Notes under the pieces: generated by a model | Seen by the model: only the letters and a program-made list of their open reading frames with translations | Databases searched by the model: none | What the model was told of the DNA's origin: nothing | Shown: positions 14,992 through 62,300 of the stretch, piece after piece | Layout of the letters: each line of letters begins with the position of its first letter | How positions within the stretch are numbered: the first letter of the stretch is position 1 | Made by a program: the position numbers and the translations under genes | Sequence record: MK327943.1 | Direction: 5' to 3' (one strand) | Length of the DNA: 64,000 nt | Source: Escherichia phage vB_EcoM_G53

Positions 14992-16410
14992 TTATGGATA
15001 TGTATAGATGATACCAGTTTCCAAAGCAGTTTTATGGATGATGTATCCATTACGTGATTCTTGAACATCAACTTCCGGATAGTCTTTCATCATCTTCTGA
15101 AGAGTGTAACGATGCAGGTAGTATTTACTATCTGGATCTTCAGTTTTCCAATCTTTACCTTCTTCAGTCATTTTTTGGATTTCATCCATAACCCACCATC
15201 CGCACCAGATGTAAGCTGAAGTACGATGTGGAAGAGGATGAACATAAGGTAATTCACCTTCTGGTTCCGGAGCAACTTTATCAGTTACCTGAACTTGACC
15301 TTCTGCTGTAATAGTTTTGCTATCGTAATCAGTTGCAGTAATAGTTGCAGTAACTTCAATAGTTTGACTTCCAATAGATGAGGTATCAACGGTATATACA
15401 TTAGTTGACCCTTCTACAGGAGAAGAATCTTTCTTCCATGAATACTCGATTTGCGCTTCTTCTGGAGCATCAGTGACATTAGCGGTAAATGTAGCCGAAG
15501 CATCTTGCTGAACGTTAATAGAAGGAGGAGTCAATGTAACCCGTGGATTCATTGTCTTCTTATTAACCGTTAATGATACTTCATTCGAAGTAACTTCCTT
15601 TGCATCATAATCTGTCGCGGTTACTTGGGCTACACATTTAATTCTTTTTACTCCACTTGTAGTCGGAGTATAGCTAAATGTAGAGTTAGTTTCTCCACCA
15701 ACCTGTGAATCATCTACATACCACTGATACGTAGCAGACGCTCCAACCGGTTGAGAAGCTAAGGCAGCAGTAAATTGAACTGGGGTTCCAATTACTCCGG
15801 CTGAAGGACTATTGGGAGTTACTGCCAACGTAGTTGTCTGTGTCTTTTTATTAACAGTCAGTGACACTTCATTAGAAGTAACGCTTAGTGCGTCATAATC
15901 TGTTGCGGTTACTTGAGCCACACACTTAATTCTTTTTACCCCGCTTTCGGCAGGAGTGTAATTGAACGTAGCGTTAGTTGCTTCGCCAACAGGAGAATCG
16001 TCTACATACCATTGATAAGTAGCGTTTGCGCCTGATGGCTGCGAAGCTAAAGCGGCGGTAAATTCAATAGCTGTTCCTATTACTCCAGCGTCAGGGCTAT
16101 TAGGAGTTATAGCCAGAGTAGTTGTCTGAGTTTTATTTTTAACTGTGATAGTTGCAGTAGCTTCTGCTGTTTCAGCTTCAGCGTCTGGAACTGTATTTGC
16201 TGCAACTACTTTAATAGTCTTTTGACCGGCAGGTCCTTTTAGTACATAACTAAAAGTTGCTTCAGCTCCATCTTGTGGAACATCATCCACAGTCCAAGCA
16301 TATGTAATAGTTCCACCTTCAGCCTGACCACTAGGTGTGGCAGTAAACTGCTGGGTCTGTCCTATAACTCCAGTAGGTGTTTTAGGAGTTATATTAACTG
16401 TAAAAGCCAT
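14992..16410 (-). CDS. hoc: Highly immunogenic outer capsid protein Hoc, with four Ig-like repeats
   Basis: 472 aa, repeated beta-rich modules plus C-terminal domain; position between 24.x and inh. Confidence 0.8.
   Translation of the reverse strand: MAFTVNITPKTPTGVIGQTQQFTATPSGQAEGGTITYAWTVDDVPQDGAEATFSYVLKGPAGQKTIKVVAANTVPDAEAETAEATATITVKNKTQTTTLAITPNSPDAGVIGTAIEFTAALASQPSGANATYQWYVDDSPVGEATNATFNYTPAESGVKRIKCVAQVTATDYDALSVTSNEVSLTVNKKTQTTTLAVTPNSPSAGVIGTPVQFTAALASQPVGASATYQWYVDDSQVGGETNSTFSYTPTTSGVKRIKCVAQVTATDYDAKEVTSNEVSLTVNKKTMNPRVTLTPPSINVQQDASATFTANVTDAPEEAQIEYSWKKDSSPVEGSTNVYTVDTSSIGSQTIEVTATITATDYDSKTITAEGQVQVTDKVAPEPEGELPYVHPLPHRTSAYIWCGWWVMDEIQKMTEEGKDWKTEDPDSKYYLHRYTLQKMMKDYPEVDVQESRNGYIIHKTALETGIIYTYP
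15556..16131 (-). repeat. Tandem duplication of a 288-bp (96-codon) Ig-like domain inside hoc
   Basis: Hoc residues 94-189 and 190-285 are about 83% identical (TQTTTLA..SLTVNKK twice). Confidence 0.8.
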
Positions 16411-36254: not shown

Positions 36255-36563
36255 TTACATAAGAAGCAAACGTTCTACCGGAGTACCATCAACCGAAATT
36301 ACTTTATCAAGGCGGAAAGAACGCCACTGACCTAACTTGGTATCGAATGCTCGAACTGATTCACGAGGTTCAGAACGAACTTCTGATGCCGGATTGTTAT
36401 TTTCATATTTGACTTCAAGTTCATCGCGAGAAGCAAACATAGCGCGTACCTCACCGTTAGCCTTTTCAAATACAACACAATGAACGCCTACAGACAGAAT
36501 AGTTTTAATACGTTCACGAAGAACCATAGTTTCTTGTTCAGTTAAAATCATATTATTCACCAC
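36255..36563 (-). CDS. Hypothetical protein (31.1 position)
   Basis: 102-aa ORF from GTG; in-frame ATG at 36551 follows cd stop by 1 nt. Confidence 0.5.
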   Translation of the reverse strand: MVNNMILTEQETMVLRERIKTILSVGVHCVVFEKANGEVRAMFASRDELEVKYENNNPASEVRSEPRESVRAFDTKLGQWRSFRLDKVISVDGTPVERLLLM

Positions 36564-37134
36564 AAAAGTTTCGGATTTGTTCCCAATTCAGAGAACGAAG
36601 ATTATTACGAGAGTACTGAATTACTTCAATACCGGCTTGTTTTAGAATGTCTGCCCAATTTTCAGGAGATCGGTCGTATAATTCTGCATATACAACCTTT
36701 TTAATACCTGACTGTGTAATAGCTTTAGTGCAATCAGGACACGGAGAAAGCGTCGTATATAACGTAGCACCTTCAATAGAATTACCTTTACGAGCTGCAA
36801 ATAAAATTGCATTCAGTTCAGCATGGATTTCATTATTAGCAGACCATGCACTATGAGCGGCCCGATGTTCTTTAGCCAAAACAAAATTATCCACCCGTCC
36901 AAATGCTGTAGTGCCTTCTTTATGCCCAGCAACGATGACCGGGCTTGGTTTATTCTTCAACCAACCGTTTTCGGATGCATGTTCGCAACAGTTTGTACCA
37001 CCTGAAGGAGAGCCATTATAACCTGTAGAAATAATGCGTCCATCTTTTTCAATGACGGCACCAACTTTCCATGAACAACATTTTGATTCTTGAGAAATCA
37101 AATAAGCAATTTGAAGATATGTGCTAGCTTTCAT
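36553..37134 (-). CDS. cd: dCMP deaminase
   Basis: 193 aa as T4 Cd; zinc motifs HAELNAI and PCPDC. Confidence 0.9.
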   Translation of the reverse strand: MKASTYLQIAYLISQESKCCSWKVGAVIEKDGRIISTGYNGSPSGGTNCCEHASENGWLKNKPSPVIVAGHKEGTTAFGRVDNFVLAKEHRAAHSAWSANNEIHAELNAILFAARKGNSIEGATLYTTLSPCPDCTKAITQSGIKKVVYAELYDRSPENWADILKQAGIEVIQYSRNNLRSLNWEQIRNFCGE

Positions 37135-38181
37135 TATTGAACCTTATTAATATAAGTTAACAGCTCTTTAGTTTGTTCCCAACTGATGCACGCATCGGTA
37201 ACGGAAACGCCATAGGACATATTATCAGAAATTTTTTGATTTCCTTCATGTAGGAATGATTCTATCATAATTCCTTTGACCAAATCATTAGCTGCTAAAT
37301 TTTTACCAATACCAATTTGATTGCTATAATGCCCATCAGCGTTTGCATGGCTACAGTCAACCATTACATAATGATTCAGACCTACTGCACTTGCTTTGTT
37401 AGAAGCTTCTTGAATATCAGAAGAATGATAGTTGACCTACTGCACTTGCTTTGTTAGAAGCTTCTTGAATATCAGAAGAATGATAGTTCGGGCCGTTGGT
37501 CCCGCCACGCAATACGATATGCGTATTCTGATTACCTTCAGCTTCAACAATGCCTACAGTACCATCGACGTCCATACCCATATACCGATGAGGCCAGGCG
37601 GCACTATACATCGCGTCTGTAGCTACTTTAATAGAACCATTGGTTGCGTTCTTGAAGCCTACGCACATCGGTAGACCTGAAGCAATTTCACGATGTGTCT
37701 GACTTTCAGTCGTACGGGCGCCAATAGCAACCCATGAGAAAATACCAGAAAGATACTTAATCGTGAATGGGTCTAATACTTCAGTTGCTAATGGAAGTCC
37801 CATACGTAGAAGTTTACGACACAATGTTCGTGCAACTATAAGACCGTGGTTCATATCAAAACTTCCGTCAAGATATGGATCATTTACAAGACCTTTCCAA
37901 CCTACGGTAGTTCGAGGCTTTTCAAAATAAACGCGCATCACTAACAGAACATTAGGAAGACGAGTTTGAAGTTCAGCCAGACGTTTGCCGTATTCAACAG
38001 CAGCAATAGGGTCATGAATTGAACAAGGACCTACAACAATAAGTTTGCGTGGGTCTTCACCGTTCATAATCGAATTAACTTGTTCGCGATGAGAAGCCAC
38101 TTGTGATGCGTAAGCTTCCGACAAAGGAATAATCTCAGCCAGTTCTTTTGGAGAAATAAGTTTTCTGACGACAGGTAACAT
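37134..38181 (-). pseudogene. DAHP synthase (AroG/AroF-type 3-deoxy-7-phosphoheptulonate synthase), frameshifted by a 55-bp tandem duplication
   Basis: Track ORFs 37417-38181 and 37134-37364 both resemble E. coli AroG (GPCSIHDP, VMRVYFEKPRTTVGWKG, GARTTESQ, DCSHAN); they fuse in frame if one repeat copy is removed. Confidence 0.8.
37379..37488. repeat. Perfect 55-bp direct tandem duplication (2 copies)
   Basis: 37379-37433 equals 37434-37488 base for base; flanking bases differ; 55 is not a multiple of 3. Confidence 0.9.
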
Positions 38182-38301
38182 AACAATCCTTAGGAGATAT
38201 AAACAGATTCTGATTCAACAATACCTTTAACCGGATTAGACAGGCTAAGTTGGTAGTGCTCAGATTTATGACCATTCTCGATAGTAATGAGATAGCTCTC
38301 A

Positions 38302-38538
38302 TTATAGTGTTCCATATACTCGAGTTGCTTCAACAAGACCATCACTGCCTAATTTAAGATTAGTAATTTGGTCACCATCTTTAGGATTAACGATTATGAG
38401 AAAAGAACGTGGAGATTCTTGAATAACTCGTAATGTTGCATCTTGGAAACGTTCAGACACTTTATTGATGAGTGCTTGAGCAAATTCTTTTACTTTAATC
38501 TGAAATTCGTGTACTGTAATTGGGTTTTCACTTAACAT
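38302..38538 (-). CDS. Hypothetical protein
   Basis: 78-aa ORF with promoter motif and SD upstream. Confidence 0.45.
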   Translation of the reverse strand: MLSENPITVHEFQIKVKEFAQALINKVSERFQDATLRVIQESPRSFLIIVNPKDGDQITNLKLGSDGLVEATRVYGTL

Positions 38539-38566
38539 TTCTATTTCCTCATTTGTTGGTAGAGTT

Positions 38567-38595
38567 ATAGTATCACAACTCCACCATGTTGTAAA
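38567..38595 (-). promoter_or_regulatory. Early promoter TTTACA-N17-TACTAT
   Basis: Hexamers with 17-bp spacer upstream of ORF 38302-38538. Confidence 0.5.
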
Positions 38596-38598
38596 CCA

Positions 38599-38874
38599 TT
38601 AAATTGCTTTGCATTCAATTTTTTGTGTACCGAAATTGATATCACATTGGATAACTAAATCGCCGTCAAGATCAAATACCACTATGACGTGTGCAGACCC
38701 AGGGAGAAGAGTAATAGCAATAGAATCTACTTGGTCTGGGAGCAAAGCGTTAAGTACATGAGTTACTTGAGCATGAACTCTGAGTTCGGCCGCATTATCA
38801 AGCACTTCAAACATATTATTAGCAATAATCTGGCTGAAGACTACCTTTACAATTTCAGAATAAGTTGGGAACAT
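38599..38874 (-). CDS. Hypothetical protein
   Basis: 91-aa ORF, ATG start. Confidence 0.45.
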   Translation of the reverse strand: MFPTYSEIVKVVFSQIIANNMFEVLDNAAELRVHAQVTHVLNALLPDQVDSIAITLLPGSAHVIVVFDLDGDLVIQCDINFGTQKIECKAI

Positions 38875-38881
38875 AATTACC

Positions 38882-39106
38882 TCAGTGCACAGTATTTACT
38901 TTAACTCGAACAACAAATCGCTCGGTTGGTTCACCTACAGGAACAAACTCTACATGATATTCACCTTTGTAACGAGTATTCAGATCATTACGAATTCCTG
39001 CGAGTTTGTTGATTAATGTAGGACTCATATTAAGTCCCACTAGTTTACGAAGCATTTTGTATGCTTCATCTTCGATTTCATGATGTTTATCGTACATAGT
39101 TTTCAT
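38882..39106 (-). CDS. Hypothetical protein
   Basis: 74-aa ORF, ATG start. Confidence 0.45.
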   Translation of the reverse strand: MKTMYDKHHEIEDEAYKMLRKLVGLNMSPTLINKLAGIRNDLNTRYKGEYHVEFVPVGEPTERFVVRVKVNTVH

Positions 39107-39278
39107 TTAACCATTCAATTGCCTGGTCGACGTTATCAAATATACCGCCGTCCAAACGTTCTTCATGCTCATAGTCCAGCACATCAATACCGAACTGTCC
39201 ATTTACTAAAGGCCAGGCTACAAACAAATATTCTTTATGATGTTCGATGGCCTCAATCACTTCATATAATCGTTTCAT
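39087..39278 (-). CDS. Hypothetical protein
   Basis: 63-aa ORF, start adjacent to pseT stop. Confidence 0.4.
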   Translation of the reverse strand: MKRLYEVIEAIEHHKEYLFVAWPLVNGQFGIDVLDYEHEERLDGGIFDNVDQAIEWLNENYVR

Positions 39279-40365
<1,087 letters not shown>

Positions 40366-40366
<1 letters not shown>

Positions 40367-40665
40367 TATTTGATTCCTAAGAAAGCTTCAAGAATACGAA
40401 TGTTGAGTTCGCGCCGGTCTTTATTAATTTCAGCAACGTTTTTATTAATTGACGTACTTCTAACGTTTGAAGAAATAAATTTAATCATATGACTTTTGAG
40501 TTGTTGCAAATCCAACCCTTTTTCTTTAGCAGCTTTACGAAGAGCTTTACCTGCTTCATCTAGTGCCTTTGCTGCATCTTTGTCATAATCTACAAGTGTC
40601 ATTCCACGGCAGATATCAATATACTCATCAGACCGTTTGATGTAATTCTCTAGTAATGTTTTCAT
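40366..40665 (-). CDS. Hypothetical protein
   Basis: 99-aa ORF with promoter motif upstream. Confidence 0.45.
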
Positions 40666-47789: not shown

Positions 47790-48650
47790 TTATACCGCCA
47801 TTTTAGCTTTGATAGCTGGATGAGATTCGTAATTTTTAAGAACGAAATCAGAATGTGCCATCGTTCCAGTAACCCAGTCCATTTGGATTTTTGTAGGCCA
47901 ATTCTCAAAATTACTAGGCCAATTAATTTCAAGAGAACATAACTCTTTAGGTTCACGACGAAGAACTTCTTTGCATTGTTCTATATGATTGCTGTAGATA
48001 TGCGTGTTGCCGCCTGAGAACACTAAATCACCTGGGATAAGGTTACACATCTTCGCTACAATATGCGTCAAGGCAGCGTACGAGGCAATGTTGAACGGCA
48101 GGCCCAAGAAAACATCTACACTGCGTTGATACCATTGTAAATCAAGATGCCCATTACGCACATTAAATTGATAGAACATATGACAAGGAGGAAGAGCCAT
48201 TTGGTCAATTTCGGCTGGGTTCCATGCAGAAACTATTTGACGACGATCATTAGGAAGAGCTTTAATACGGTCGATAGTTTTGTCCAATTGGTCTACACCA
48301 CCAAAATCACGCCATTGCTTACCATAAATAGGACCAAGTTCGCCGCTATGATACCCAAGGTCTTTTGCCTGATTTTCATAGTTGTCGTCCCAAATAGTTT
48401 TACCTTGAATAAGACTACCATGAGTACGAATACGCAAATCATTAACATTGGTAGAACCAGACATGAACCACAGTAACTCGGCAATACAAGCTTTCCACGC
48501 TAATTTCTTAGTTGTTACCGCAGGGAATCCTTTAGTCAGATCCCAACGTAATTTAGTTCCGAACAGGGCAATTGTTCCTGTGCCTGTACGGTCGTCTGTT
48601 TCGTAGCCATTTTCTAGGATATCATTAATCAGGTATTGGTATTGTTTCAT
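47790..48650 (-). CDS. td: Thymidylate synthase Td (intron-less)
   Basis: 286 aa contiguous ORF, same length as spliced T4 Td. Confidence 0.95.
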   Translation of the reverse strand: MKQYQYLINDILENGYETDDRTGTGTIALFGTKLRWDLTKGFPAVTTKKLAWKACIAELLWFMSGSTNVNDLRIRTHGSLIQGKTIWDDNYENQAKDLGYHSGELGPIYGKQWRDFGGVDQLDKTIDRIKALPNDRRQIVSAWNPAEIDQMALPPCHMFYQFNVRNGHLDLQWYQRSVDVFLGLPFNIASYAALTHIVAKMCNLIPGDLVFSGGNTHIYSNHIEQCKEVLRREPKELCSLEINWPSNFENWPTKIQMDWVTGTMAHSDFVLKNYESHPAIKAKMAV

Positions 48651-49234
48651 TTATAAACGCTCTCAGTAATTTCGGTGAGTTCATCGATTCTGTAGTAATG
48701 AGATTCTACCATAGAACGTTGAAGCATAATATCTTGGACGAAATCTTTATCAAGTTGAACATCGGAATTAACACGACATTTCTTAATGATTTTAGTCATC
48801 ACGATTTCATCGGCATAAGGCAGTGCTTGTTTTAATAAAGCAGGACCGCCGATAACAGATACATTAACATGTTCAGTAGAAAGTTTAAACGGTACATCAG
48901 TTGCAGGGCTAAACAGGTTAATTTCACCACCTGTTACCAAGGTAATAAATTCAGATTGGGTGATATAGAACCGTGCAAGTTCATCAGTTTTAGTCCTAGG
49001 CAGTTTTCTGGCCATATCAGTGACAACCACATGAGTACGATCTGGGAGTAGACGAGGTAATGATGCAAAAGTCTTAGCACCCATAACCATTACAGTGTTT
49101 TTAGTGCGAGCAACAAAGTTACTCATATCTTGTTTGATATGCTTCCATGGAAGTCCATCACCTAATCCAAAAGCATATTCCAGTTTATCATCAACTGTTT
49201 TAGATGGTGCGCATGCGAATACTAATTTAAGCAT
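48647..49234 (-). CDS. frd: Dihydrofolate reductase Frd
   Basis: 195 aa (T4 193); synteny. Confidence 0.85.
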   Translation of the reverse strand: MLKLVFACAPSKTVDDKLEYAFGLGDGLPWKHIKQDMSNFVARTKNTVMVMGAKTFASLPRLLPDRTHVVVTDMARKLPRTKTDELARFYITQSEFITLVTGGEINLFSPATDVPFKLSTEHVNVSVIGGPALLKQALPYADEIVMTKIIKKCRVNSDVQLDKDFVQDIMLQRSMVESHYYRIDELTEITESVYK

Positions 49235-59325: not shown

Positions 59326-62300
59326 ATGGCTACATTAAAACAGATACAATTTAAAAGAAGCAAAGTGGCAGGAGTTAATCCTACTGCAGCACAATTAGCC
59401 GAAGGCGAATTAGCGATAAACTTAAAAGACCGAACTCTTTTTACTAAAGATGACCTCGGTAATATTATTAGCCTAGGCTTTGCTAAGGGCGGGCAAGTTG
59501 ACGGCAACGTTACTATTAACGGACTTTTGAGATTAAATGGCGATTATGTACAAACAGGCGGAATGACTGTAAACGGACCTATTGGTTCTACTGATGGCGT
59601 AACTGCAAAAGTTTTCAGATCTACACAGGGTTCATTTTATACAAGAGCAACAAACGATACTGCAAATGCCCATCTTTGGTTTGAAAATACAAATGGCTCA
59701 GAACGTGGTGTTTTATATTCAAAACCGCAGTCTGAAAATGAAGGCGTAATTACAATGCGTGTTCGTCAAGGAACCGCTGCGGGAGCTCAAAATTCAGAAT
59801 TTCATTTCATTTCTACCGATGGCGGTATCTTCCAGGCACGCAAATTAACTGCTTTAACTTCTATTAGTACACCAACTATTAGTGTTAATTTAATTAATCA
59901 TGATTCTAAATCATTTGGACAATACGATTCGCAGTCATTAGTTCAATATGTTTATCCTGGAACCGGTGAAACAAACGGAATCAATTACCTTCGTAAAGTT
60001 CGAGCTAAATCAGGCGGAACCATTTACCATGAAATCGCTTCTTCGCAAACCGGAAAAAGTGATGAAATTTCTTGGTGGACTGGAAATACAGCCGTTAATA
60101 AACAAATGGGTCTTCGTAATGATGGGTCTTTAGTATTACGACGCTCGCTCGCAATTGGTACAATTACAACAGATGAAAACATTAATAACTACGGCTCCGC
60201 TGGAGCAATGGGCGAATGTTATATAGTTATCGGTGATGCATCAACAGGTTTATCATACAAAAAAACTGGAGTATATGATTTAGTTGCTAGTGGTCTTTCT
60301 TTAGCATCTATTACTCCTGATAGTTTCCGTAGTACCCGTAAAGCGATTTTTGGGCGCTCAGAAGACCAAGGTACAACATGGATTATGCCTGGAACGAACG
60401 CTGCATTTTTATCGGTTCAAACACAGGCTGATGAAAACACTGCTGGAGACGGTCAAACCCATATTGGATATAATTCTGGCGGAAAAATGAACCACTATTT
60501 CCGTGGTAAAGGCAAAACTAATATTAATACTCAGGAAGGTATGGAAGTTAATCCGGGTATTTTGAAATTGGTAACTGGCTCTAATAATGTAATGTTTTAT
60601 GCTGATGGCGGTATTACATCTGTTAAGCAGCTTTCAATATATAATGGCATATATTTAGCAGCTAATAATTCTACTGCTGGGCTAACATTCGCTCCAACTA
60701 CTACAATTGATGGCACTAAGCAAATTTTGTGGGAAGGCGGTACTCGTGCTGGTCAGAATAAAAGCTATGTAACTGTTAAAGCATGGGGTAATTCATTTAA
60801 CGCATCCGGCGATCGTAATCGTGAAACTGTATTTGAAGTTAGTGACGGGCAAGGATATTATTTTTATTCACAGCGTGTGGCTCCAAGTGGCTCTGAAACT
60901 ACTGGGCCTGTTGTAACCCAGTTCAATGGACAAGTTAATGCTAGAGGAAGTATTATTACTGACGGAAGTCTTAGAGTTAACGGATTAAGTACATTATCCG
61001 GACAAGTTACTATGGATAACGGGCTTGTTTTATCCGGCGGTGGTTCTATTACCGGTCAAGTTAAAATCGGTAATACCGCAGATGCTTTCCGTATTTACAA
61101 TGCTGAATATGGAGCTATTTTCCGTCGTTCTGAAGCGTCTTTGCATATTATACCTACACTTAAAGATGCAGGTGAAAGTGGTGGTATTTCTAACCTTCGC
61201 CCATTGAGTGTTTCTCTTAACAACGGTATGGTTCAAATGCGCCATTCTGTTACGTTAGGTGATGATGGTGCTGGCGGTAATATGGTGACCGTTGATAATG
61301 ATAATAAACTTGTTGTTATAACTAGTCATAGTCGCATTTCTCCTAATTACCGTATGCAATTAGGACAATCGGCATATATCGACGCTGAATGTACTGATAC
61401 TGCACGACCTGCTGGAGCCGGTTCTTTTGCTTCACAAAATAATGAAAACGTTCGTGCTCCGTTCTATATGAATATTGATAGAACAGATACAAGCACTTAT
61501 GTTCCTATTGTGAAACAAAGATACGTTCAAAATAATAGTTGTTATTCTATTGGTACTTTAATTAATGGTGGTAACTTTAGAGTTCATTATCACGAAGGTG
61601 GTGACGGCGTTTCTACTGGTGCTATTATAAAGGATCTTGGATGGGAATTTAATAAAAACGGTGATTTTTATTCTCCTGGTAAATTAGGCGCTGGTAATGT
61701 TCGTATTGGTACTGATGGTAATATCACCGGTGGTTCTGGCAACTTTGCTAACTTGAATACCACAATAAATAACCTTAAGACGGATATTGTCTCAAGTTAT
61801 CCTATTGGTGCTCCGATTCCTTGGCCTACTGATACACCTCCTGAAGGTTATGCCATAATGGAAGGTCAAACATTTGATGCTGGCTTGTATCCTAAGTTAG
61901 CTGCGGTGTATCCTTCCGGCGCTCTGCCTGATATGCGCGGTCAAACTATCAAGGGTAAACCATCTGGGCGTGCTGTATTAAGTACAGAAGCAGATGGTGT
62001 TAAGTCACATAGCCATAGTGCAAGTGCATCAAGCACAGATTTGGGTACTAAAAACACATCAAGTTTTGATTATGGTAGCAAAACGACTTCAAGCTTTGAT
62101 TATGGTACTAAGACCAGTAATACCACTGGTAACCATAACCATACAGTGAGTGGTAATACTAGTTCCGCAGGAGCTCACCAACACGCGCGTTCAGGTCCTC
62201 AGGTCACTGCTGCATGGGCAGACGATTTGTTTAGAGACGGGGTTACTACGATAGGTGCAAACTCATATGCTAAAATTAACTCAGGTATCACTGGTTCGAC

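Follow-up and report, generated by a model that had tools for sequence, protein, structure and literature searches.

The window, a 64,000-nucleotide stretch of the genome of Escherichia phage vB_EcoM_G53 (MK327943.1), carries an interrupted gene for a DAHP synthase (phage clade, phrog_5045) at positions 37134 to 38181 on the minus strand. Its start codon is the ATG at 38181 to 38179, and a Shine-Dalgarno sequence (AAGGA; 38187 to 38191, minus strand) can be read off 5 nt before it. The TAA stop codon (37136 to 37134) overlaps by 1 base the ATG of the downstream neighbor cd, which encodes dCMP deaminase (36553 to 37134, minus strand), forming TAATG. Upstream lies the resident homologue of cd.2, a full-length DUF7320 gene (38302 to 38538, minus strand), and, immediately in front of the DAHP synthase gene, a relic of a foreign cd.2-like gene (38190 to 38345, minus strand), reduced to its C-terminal half and matching DUF7320 only partially (profile positions 43 to 76). 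pseT (39279 to 40178) follows beyond a cluster of small open reading frames (ORFs). A preliminary description of this DNA had placed the gene between cd and the small-ORF cluster before pseT and had noted that the corresponding T4 slot holds only small cd.x ORFs; both points are correct, the T4 slot between cd and pseT containing only cd.1 to cd.5 and no DAHP synthase. A scan of positions 36400 to 40400 for sigma-70 promoters and terminators found 9 promoter-like sites, compared with 11.6 expected by chance, and none of them lies upstream of the DAHP synthase gene.

As written, the window contains no uninterrupted DAHP synthase reading frame. A perfect tandem duplication of 55 bp within the gene (copy 1, 37379 to 37433; copy 2, 37434 to 37488; in TRF, period 55, 2.0 copies, 100% match) throws the gene out of frame after residue 249 and creates a novel junction at 37433/37434. 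No other perfect tandem repeat occurs in the 64 kb of the window; this one spans 37379 to 37488. The resulting 5′ ORF (37417 to 38181, minus strand; 254 amino acids) encodes 249 native residues and terminates after five further ones, QLSFF, while the 3′ ORF (37134 to 37364, minus strand; 76 amino acids) starts at an internal Met and corresponds to native residues 255 to 330. Removal of either 55-bp copy yields a single 993-nt ORF of 330 amino acids, as expected from the earlier view that the gene needs repair, and the repaired protein differs at 2 residues from that of the Mosigvirus phage WFbE185 (QBQ77726).

Similarity searches with the repaired ORF, a check proposed in the preliminary description, gave strong matches to DAHP synthase profiles. 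The ORF matched PF00793 with an E value of 6.8e-75 (251.9 bits; cut-off, 25.5), the aroFGH equivalog TIGR00034 with 427.6 bits (cut-off, 173.2), and NF009395 with 455.6 bits (cut-off, 343). It did not reach the AroG equivalog NF006723 (364; cut-off, 568) or the AroH equivalog NF009396 (385; cut-off, 463). The top solved structure by sequence was E. coli AroF (PDB 6agm; E = 4e-105). These matches to PF00793, TIGR00034, NF009395, and 6agm agree with the conserved class I alpha blocks noted in the preliminary description. The ORF also matched phrog_5045, a family categorized as moron/AMG/host takeover, with residues 1 to 330 on profile positions 8 to 337 of 341 (E = 2.7e-182). An AlphaFold model was built on a relative, P0001, that is 99% identical to the repaired protein. 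The model (pLDDT, 93.8; pTM, 0.92) has the (beta/alpha)8 barrel of solved DAH7PS structures and, in Foldseek, aligned with the type I-alpha DAH7PS enzymes of Neisseria meningitidis and E. coli with a TM score of 0.96 and an rmsd of 1.4 Å. KDO8P synthase or another PF00793 activity was considered and rejected, because the score to the aroFGH equivalog is far over the cut-off and the protein has a complete KPRT/GWKG motif. Sequence and model together unambiguously identify the repaired product as a class I-alpha DAHP synthase.

The residues equivalent to AroG C61, R92, K97, R165, K186, R234, H268, E302, and D326 do not vary among the 29 phage and 97 cellular sequences compared. The cellular set comprises the 97 best matches to the phage query; it is mostly AroF-like and samples the type I-alpha enzymes with a bias. 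The counterparts of the nine residues in the repaired protein are C53, R83, K88, R156, K177, R225, H260, E289, and D311. From AroG crystallography, we take C61, H268, E302, and D326 to be the metal ligands and R92, K97 (KPRT..GWKG), R165, K186, and R234 to bind phosphoenolpyruvate (PEP) and erythrose-4-phosphate (E4P). Since all nine metal, PEP, and E4P residues are invariant, the phage enzyme should be catalytically competent. The interruption separates these residues. The 254-residue 5′ ORF keeps C53, R83, K88, R156, K177, and R225, and H260, E289, and D311 are found in the 76-residue 3′ ORF, so that the truncated product is left with C53 as its only metal ligand. Were the duplication real, loss of the other three would leave the allele inactive.

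The gene is widespread in T4-like phages. By tblastn, 212 phage records matched, and all 212 carry the gene at full length. Of these, 139 were at least 95% identical to the query, and the named and checked examples among them are Mosigvirus; another 47 matched at 60 to 80% and included Kanagawavirus, Marfavirus, Winklervirus, Edwardsiella phage PEi26, EcS1, and Erwinia phages. The DAHP synthase of Proteus Bragavirus matched at about 58%, and there were a few further remote matches. In every genus inspected, the slot has the order pseT, small ORFs, DAHP synthase, 0 to 2 small ORFs, cd, gp31, and rIII, and the arrangement of pseT, DAHP synthase, and cd is shared by the window, Mosigvirus, Kanagawavirus, Marfavirus, Winklervirus, and Bragavirus, as well as by a metagenomic T4-like contig with the identical order. 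PhAPEC2, APCEc01, JK45, NicPhage, phiC120, and Klebsiella phage KLB31 carry the same gene in the same slot with 99% identity; the window differs from these relatives in that it alone has the 55-bp duplication. In RB69, the type Mosigvirus, cd abuts cd.2 and there is no DAHP synthase. About ten more Mosigvirus records (five of mar005P1, JK36, JK42, moha, and ECO111 5-P) share this empty site, as do WG01/QL01-like phages, though at lower identity. Common as it is in T4-like phages, the gene is dispensable, given that RB69 and other Mosigvirus isolates are without it. The preliminary description had allowed that the gene might be unusual among T4-like phages. This idea is not sustained, because close relatives commonly carry the gene (some 140 Mosigvirus records with an identity of at least 95%) and because it is already catalogued as PHROG 5045. 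The gene is mentioned in passing as a DAHP-synthetase domain or AMG in two papers (PMC8022965 and PMC11845039), and we found no functional work on a phage DAHP synthase, neither enzymology nor an infection phenotype, in the searchable literature.

To account for the broken frame, two explanations have to be weighed, an error of assembly and a genuine mutation of this isolate. The borders of the repeat show no microhomology (ATTCA|GACC and AGTT|CGGG), and the repeat sits at an arbitrary mid-gene position of a circularly permuted genome, as joined but untrimmed contig ends would. SPAdes "typically" leaves terminal repeats of about 55 bp on circular phage contigs (PMC12509680). An untrimmed SPAdes overlap (k = 55) would have become internal once the circular contig was joined and rotated. 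Because the junction lacks microhomology and its length equals that of the SPAdes terminal overlap, the duplication most likely arose when contig ends were joined untrimmed during assembly.

Comparisons with other records bear on the same question. When a 1501-nt query was used, the 40 near-identical phage records listed aligned over 1446 nt, which is 55 nt short. A 70-nt junction query gave, among the matches listed, only two-piece matches on single-copy loci, and a 40-nt junction query, in which no seed is possible without the junction, gave zero matches in 50,697 phage records. The exact junction 31-mer was not found in IMG/VR, JGI metagenome contigs, or GTDB genomes; as a control, the wild-type junction is present in IMG/VR. 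Likewise, no match to the exact truncated 254-residue product is on record. The nearest record, vB_Eco_NicPhage, is 99.0% identical over 24 kb, and the window is colinear with it from 17139 to 59469 (42 kb) with one break, at 37433/37434.

Were the duplication instead a genuine mutation, the gene would be a fresh pseudogene in a phage that grows without it. Several observations are compatible with such an event: the gene is dispensable, being absent from T4, RB69, and the roughly ten other Mosigvirus records; the best match to the window is the 99.0% of NicPhage and no record is identical to it, so a private mutation is possible; and the repaired allele differs from its nearest relatives by 2 nonsynonymous and 0 or 1 synonymous changes. 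However, the repeat has the standard length of a SPAdes overlap and borders that lack microhomology, its junction occurs in no other record or contig searched, and the gene is full length in all matching phage records and appears to be under purifying selection. T4 recombination should, moreover, make a perfect 55-bp tandem repeat unstable. We consider a genuine mutation rather unlikely for these reasons, and causes other than these two less likely again. In the sequence, an assembly artifact could not be told apart from a private mutation or from editing after assembly; the disruption of the gene in this record is nevertheless most likely technical.

The preliminary description had called the enzyme host-like and had suggested a phylogeny. 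At the family level, the term is apt. In other respects it is not, as the repaired protein shares only 51% identity with AroF of E. coli, 47% with AroG, and 43.5% with AroH, its cellular matches come from mixed phyla, and the phage sequences form a clade of their own. In a search of 5.8 billion proteins, all matches above about 55% identity that were named or checked belonged to T4-like phages; cellular matches begin at 50 to 55% and comprise Planctomycetota, Pontiella, assorted Gammaproteobacteria, and enterobacterial AroF. The 29 T4-like-phage sequences were monophyletic in a neighbor-joining tree, which is a crude one. Between genera, dN/dS was 0.15 to 0.23, with dS near saturation, and purifying selection on the phage clade is indicated. 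Recent capture from the E. coli host was also considered and was rejected on the grounds that identity to AroF, AroG, and AroH does not exceed 51% and that the top cellular matches are from mixed phyla.

The insertion site itself preserves traces of how the gene entered Mosigvirus. At the empty site of RB69 (...GGAACACTATAATGAAAGCTAGC...), the cd.2 stop overlaps the cd start. The left joint in the window (...GGAACACTATAATGAGAGCTATCTCATT...) leads into 112 nt coding for a foreign cd.2-like protein, of which only the C-terminal half is left (SYLITIENGHK...VESESVYIS). By eye and unscored, this relic resembles the cd.2 homologues that lie directly upstream of the DAHP synthase gene in Kanagawavirus and Marfavirus, but a blastp comparison against the cd.2 proteins of the window and RB69 gave no match. 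The relic appears to mark the left edge of an imported DAHP synthase cassette. Such an insertion scar, with a fragment of the donor's cd.2, points to entry from a T4-like phage, and Mosigvirus is thus predicted to have acquired the gene from another phage of this group and not from E. coli.

While the active site is invariant, the regulatory elements of the phage enzymes differ from those of their cellular homologues. The 29 phage sequences have 0 to 3 residues before AroG position 10, where none of the 97 cellular sequences has fewer than 7, and the phage proteins are without the regulatory N-terminal extension (beta0) that closes the inhibitor site of the neighboring subunit. The short N terminus drops the equivalents of AroG D6/D7 and AroF N8. 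We scanned 328 alignment columns for positions where the phages have one conserved residue (95% or more) and the cellular homologues another (90% or more); only six qualified, P150I, Q151K, D155G, S180P, F209Y, and T223A (AroG numbering). In the cellular homologues, P150 is conserved in 93%, Q151 in 100%, S180 in 99%, and F209 in 99%, whereas in phages the four positions are occupied by I, K, P, and Y; the conserved pocket for aromatic amino acids, formed by these residues and their neighbors, is not preserved in the phage clade. The separate DAHP synthase of Aeromonas phage HJ05 (38% identity) likewise has Pro at 180 and a residue other than Gln at 151.

Several of these positions are known from studies of the E. 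coli enzymes. Feedback resistance of AroG results from P150L, S180F, and F209A/S; Gln151 (AroF Q152) takes part in inhibition, and changes there likewise confer feedback resistance; the side chain of S180/S181, "conserved across the species," touches the main chain of the inhibitor; and the regulatory region contains a salt bridge made by D155 (PMC9529685). AroF becomes insensitive to Tyr through N8K or through deletion of Ile11 (PMC11843938; PMC5791370). Feedback insensitivity of the phage DAHP synthase is the best-supported inference from the missing N-terminal segment and the clustering of six clade-specific changes at the allosteric pocket.

The replaced residues are themselves strongly conserved. 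I150, K151, G155, P180, Y209, and A223 are 97 to 100% conserved across phage genera that are otherwise 56 to 77% identical, with 34% of columns invariant overall. The beta6a/6b regulatory hairpin is kept, with predicted strands at 198 to 203 and 209 to 214 in the P0001 model, and this region aligns ungapped to AroG 207 to 221. Invariance of the pocket may fit a retained or different ligand site, or a constraint at the dimer interface, as well as it fits loss of regulation. A re-tooled pocket would place the enzyme under the control of a different effector, for example, a metabolite that reports the replication state of the phage, and the conservation of the six residues, the retained hairpin, and a Lys at 151 that could still suit an anionic ligand are all in keeping with this. 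We nevertheless consider re-tooling improbable, as the phage enzymes have lost the N-terminal strand with which the neighboring subunit closes the site, the location of the pocket residues at the dimer interface could explain their conservation, and no candidate ligand is known. A broader form of the idea, that natural re-engineering of the regulatory site, with no N-terminal lid and an invariant pocket, has given the phage its own control valve on the shikimate pathway, answering to a phage-relevant effector or to none, seems to us equally doubtful.

The enzyme would condense phosphoenolpyruvate and erythrose-4-phosphate to DAHP, the entry to the shikimate pathway. In the preferred interpretation, it would be expressed together with the pre-replicative cd and pseT genes, as suggested by synteny and by the stop/start overlap with cd. 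Phe, Tyr, and Trp would not exert feedback on it, and carbon could keep entering chorismate-derived products during the shut-off of host gene expression.

As for what this flux would serve, the simplest guess is the supply of Tyr and Phe for an aromatic-rich phage proteome. The ORFs of the window that encode at least 150 amino acids contain 4.3% F, 4.0% Y, and 1.3% W (9.6% F+Y+W), a content only modestly above that of E. coli, and as a basis for a Tyr/Phe demand it offers weak support at best. A link to folate supply had been put forward in the preliminary description. Spelled out, the enzyme would raise chorismate, and through it p-aminobenzoate (pABA) and folate, for the nucleotide metabolism that involves td, frd, and the hydroxymethylase. 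Chorismate is indeed the precursor of pABA in the established pathway, and the gene adjoins cd. Its distance from td (47790 to 48650) and frd (48647 to 49234) is about 10 kb, past pseT, alc, rnlA, denA, and nrdAB, and adjacency is in any case a weak argument where the content of the cd-pseT region varies between T4-like phages. T4 and RB69 have td and frd without a DAHP synthase. The small ORFs beside the gene in the window and four other genera encode only DUF7320, DUF7355, WYL_2, HNH/NUMOD3, or unknown proteins, and none is a shikimate, chorismate, pABA, or folate gene; nor is any shikimate, pABA, or folate enzyme, including a pab or fol product, found in the 50-kb annotation of the nearest relative. 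Folate, finally, is recycled as a cofactor, and the extra need within one infection cycle is small. Together, these observations speak against the folate link, to which we assign a low probability.

The products could also be irrelevant, the enzyme acting mainly as a drain on PEP and/or E4P that rewires the central metabolism of the host. An unregulated DAHP synthase would be expected to use up both substrates, but no finding here is specific to such a role, and strict conservation of the active site is equally expected for a biosynthetic one; we consider this explanation very unlikely. The interpretation as a whole, that of an accessory, dispensable, feedback-insensitive DAHP synthase of T4-like phages, acquired from another phage and broken in this record by a likely assembly overlap, appears moderately likely to us.

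These results have consequences for annotation and for further use of the gene. Its annotation in the window should name a DAHP synthase and the 55-bp duplication that interrupts it. More generally, the sequence suggests that the gatekeeping enzyme of the shikimate pathway exists in phages in a naturally feedback-resistant form, and a vague "AMG" label can thereby be turned into a specific hypothesis. We found no description of the apparent clade-wide remodeling of the allosteric site in the literature searched, and it is the main residual interest of the gene. The presence/absence polymorphism within Mosigvirus offers ready-made isogenic-like comparisons, and the phage enzyme could be a natural alternative to the engineered feedback-resistant AroG and AroF alleles in the production of aromatic compounds.

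The closest known systems are AroF (PDB 6AGM/6AGL), AroG, and AroH of E. coli, which share family, fold, and the nine catalytic residues with the phage enzyme. In having Gly at AroG position 211, the phage enzyme resembles the Tyr-type enzymes. It differs from them in the absence of about 9 N-terminal residues, including the equivalents of AroF N8 and I11, in the six pocket substitutions, and in two short deletions and a shorter C terminus. Engineered feedback-resistant AroG and AroF carry P150L, S180F, D146N, Q152I, N8K, or the deletion of Ile11, and the phage clade departs from the wild-type enzymes at 150, 151/152, 180, and the N terminus. The phage residues (Ile, Lys, and Pro) are not those of the engineered alleles, and D146 is kept. 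A further parallel lies in secondary metabolism, where dedicated DAHP synthase copies escape normal feedback. PhzC of phenazine producers is presumably of a different DAHP synthase type and not a homologous subfamily. In concept, PhzC is alike in that an extra DAHP synthase copy is provided for a special demand (PMC8772962).

Within Mosigvirus, the DAHP synthase (DAHPS) gene is polymorphic, being present in some records and absent from others. An empty site was found in the type phage RB69 (locus L013, 5743-6503), in mar005P1 (five records), and in JK36, JK42, moha, and ECO111 5-P (matches H128-H138). WFbE185 carries the gene and is assigned to the species Mosigvirus mar005p1.

The window retains an insertion scar at this site (38190..38345, minus strand), with junctions at 38292-38304 and 37125-37136. 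Between the resident cd.2 homologue and the DAHPS gene lies a 112-nt relic of a foreign cd.2-like (DUF7320) gene, encoding the C-terminal half of its protein, and a TAATGA(A/G)AGCTA-like sequence is present at both ends of the cassette. In contrast with these scarred ends, the cd.2/cd overlap of RB69 is clean. This arrangement implies that the cassette was imported from a phage resembling Kanagawavirus or Marfavirus.

Homing-endonuclease open reading frames (ORFs) of the intron type (HNH/NUMOD3) occupy the cd-pseT interval of relatives (loci L001, 8317-9039; L006, 4480-5049; and L008, 2106-2822) and are absent from the window. This pattern fits a reading of the cd-pseT interval as a hotspot for mobile insertions. 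At the pseT end, both the window (39279..40178) and WFbE185 carry a 299-amino-acid pseT ORF; the pseT of NicPhage, the record closest to the window, is annotated as ~40 amino acids shorter (L011, 27003-27779), probably because its start site was annotated differently or because the NicPhage record contains a small indel.

Elsewhere, an imperfect tandem repeat at 15553..16143 (period of 288 nt, 2.1 copies, 76% identity), which may encode repeated protein domains, coincides with a fall to 91.6% in the alignment to the closest relative. For a second stretch, 59470..60267, which lies within the region of the long-tail-fibre genes, blastn gave no counterpart in NicPhage.

A distant DAHPS (38% identity) is encoded by Aeromonas phage HJ05, a 79-kb phage that is not T4-like (L009, 3399-4562). 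As in the T4-like-phage enzymes, AroG position 180 is occupied by Pro and Gln151 is missing, which may reflect convergent loss of the inhibitor site among phage enzymes. The pocket is also altered (A150, G151, P180, and H209 in AroG positions) in P0118, a chromosomal bacterial DAHPS whose gene (L014, 6001-7083) neighbors uvrC and an ABC transporter. P0118 was placed beside the phage clade in a neighbor-joining tree and could be a relative, from a cellular lineage, of the deregulated DAHPS form.
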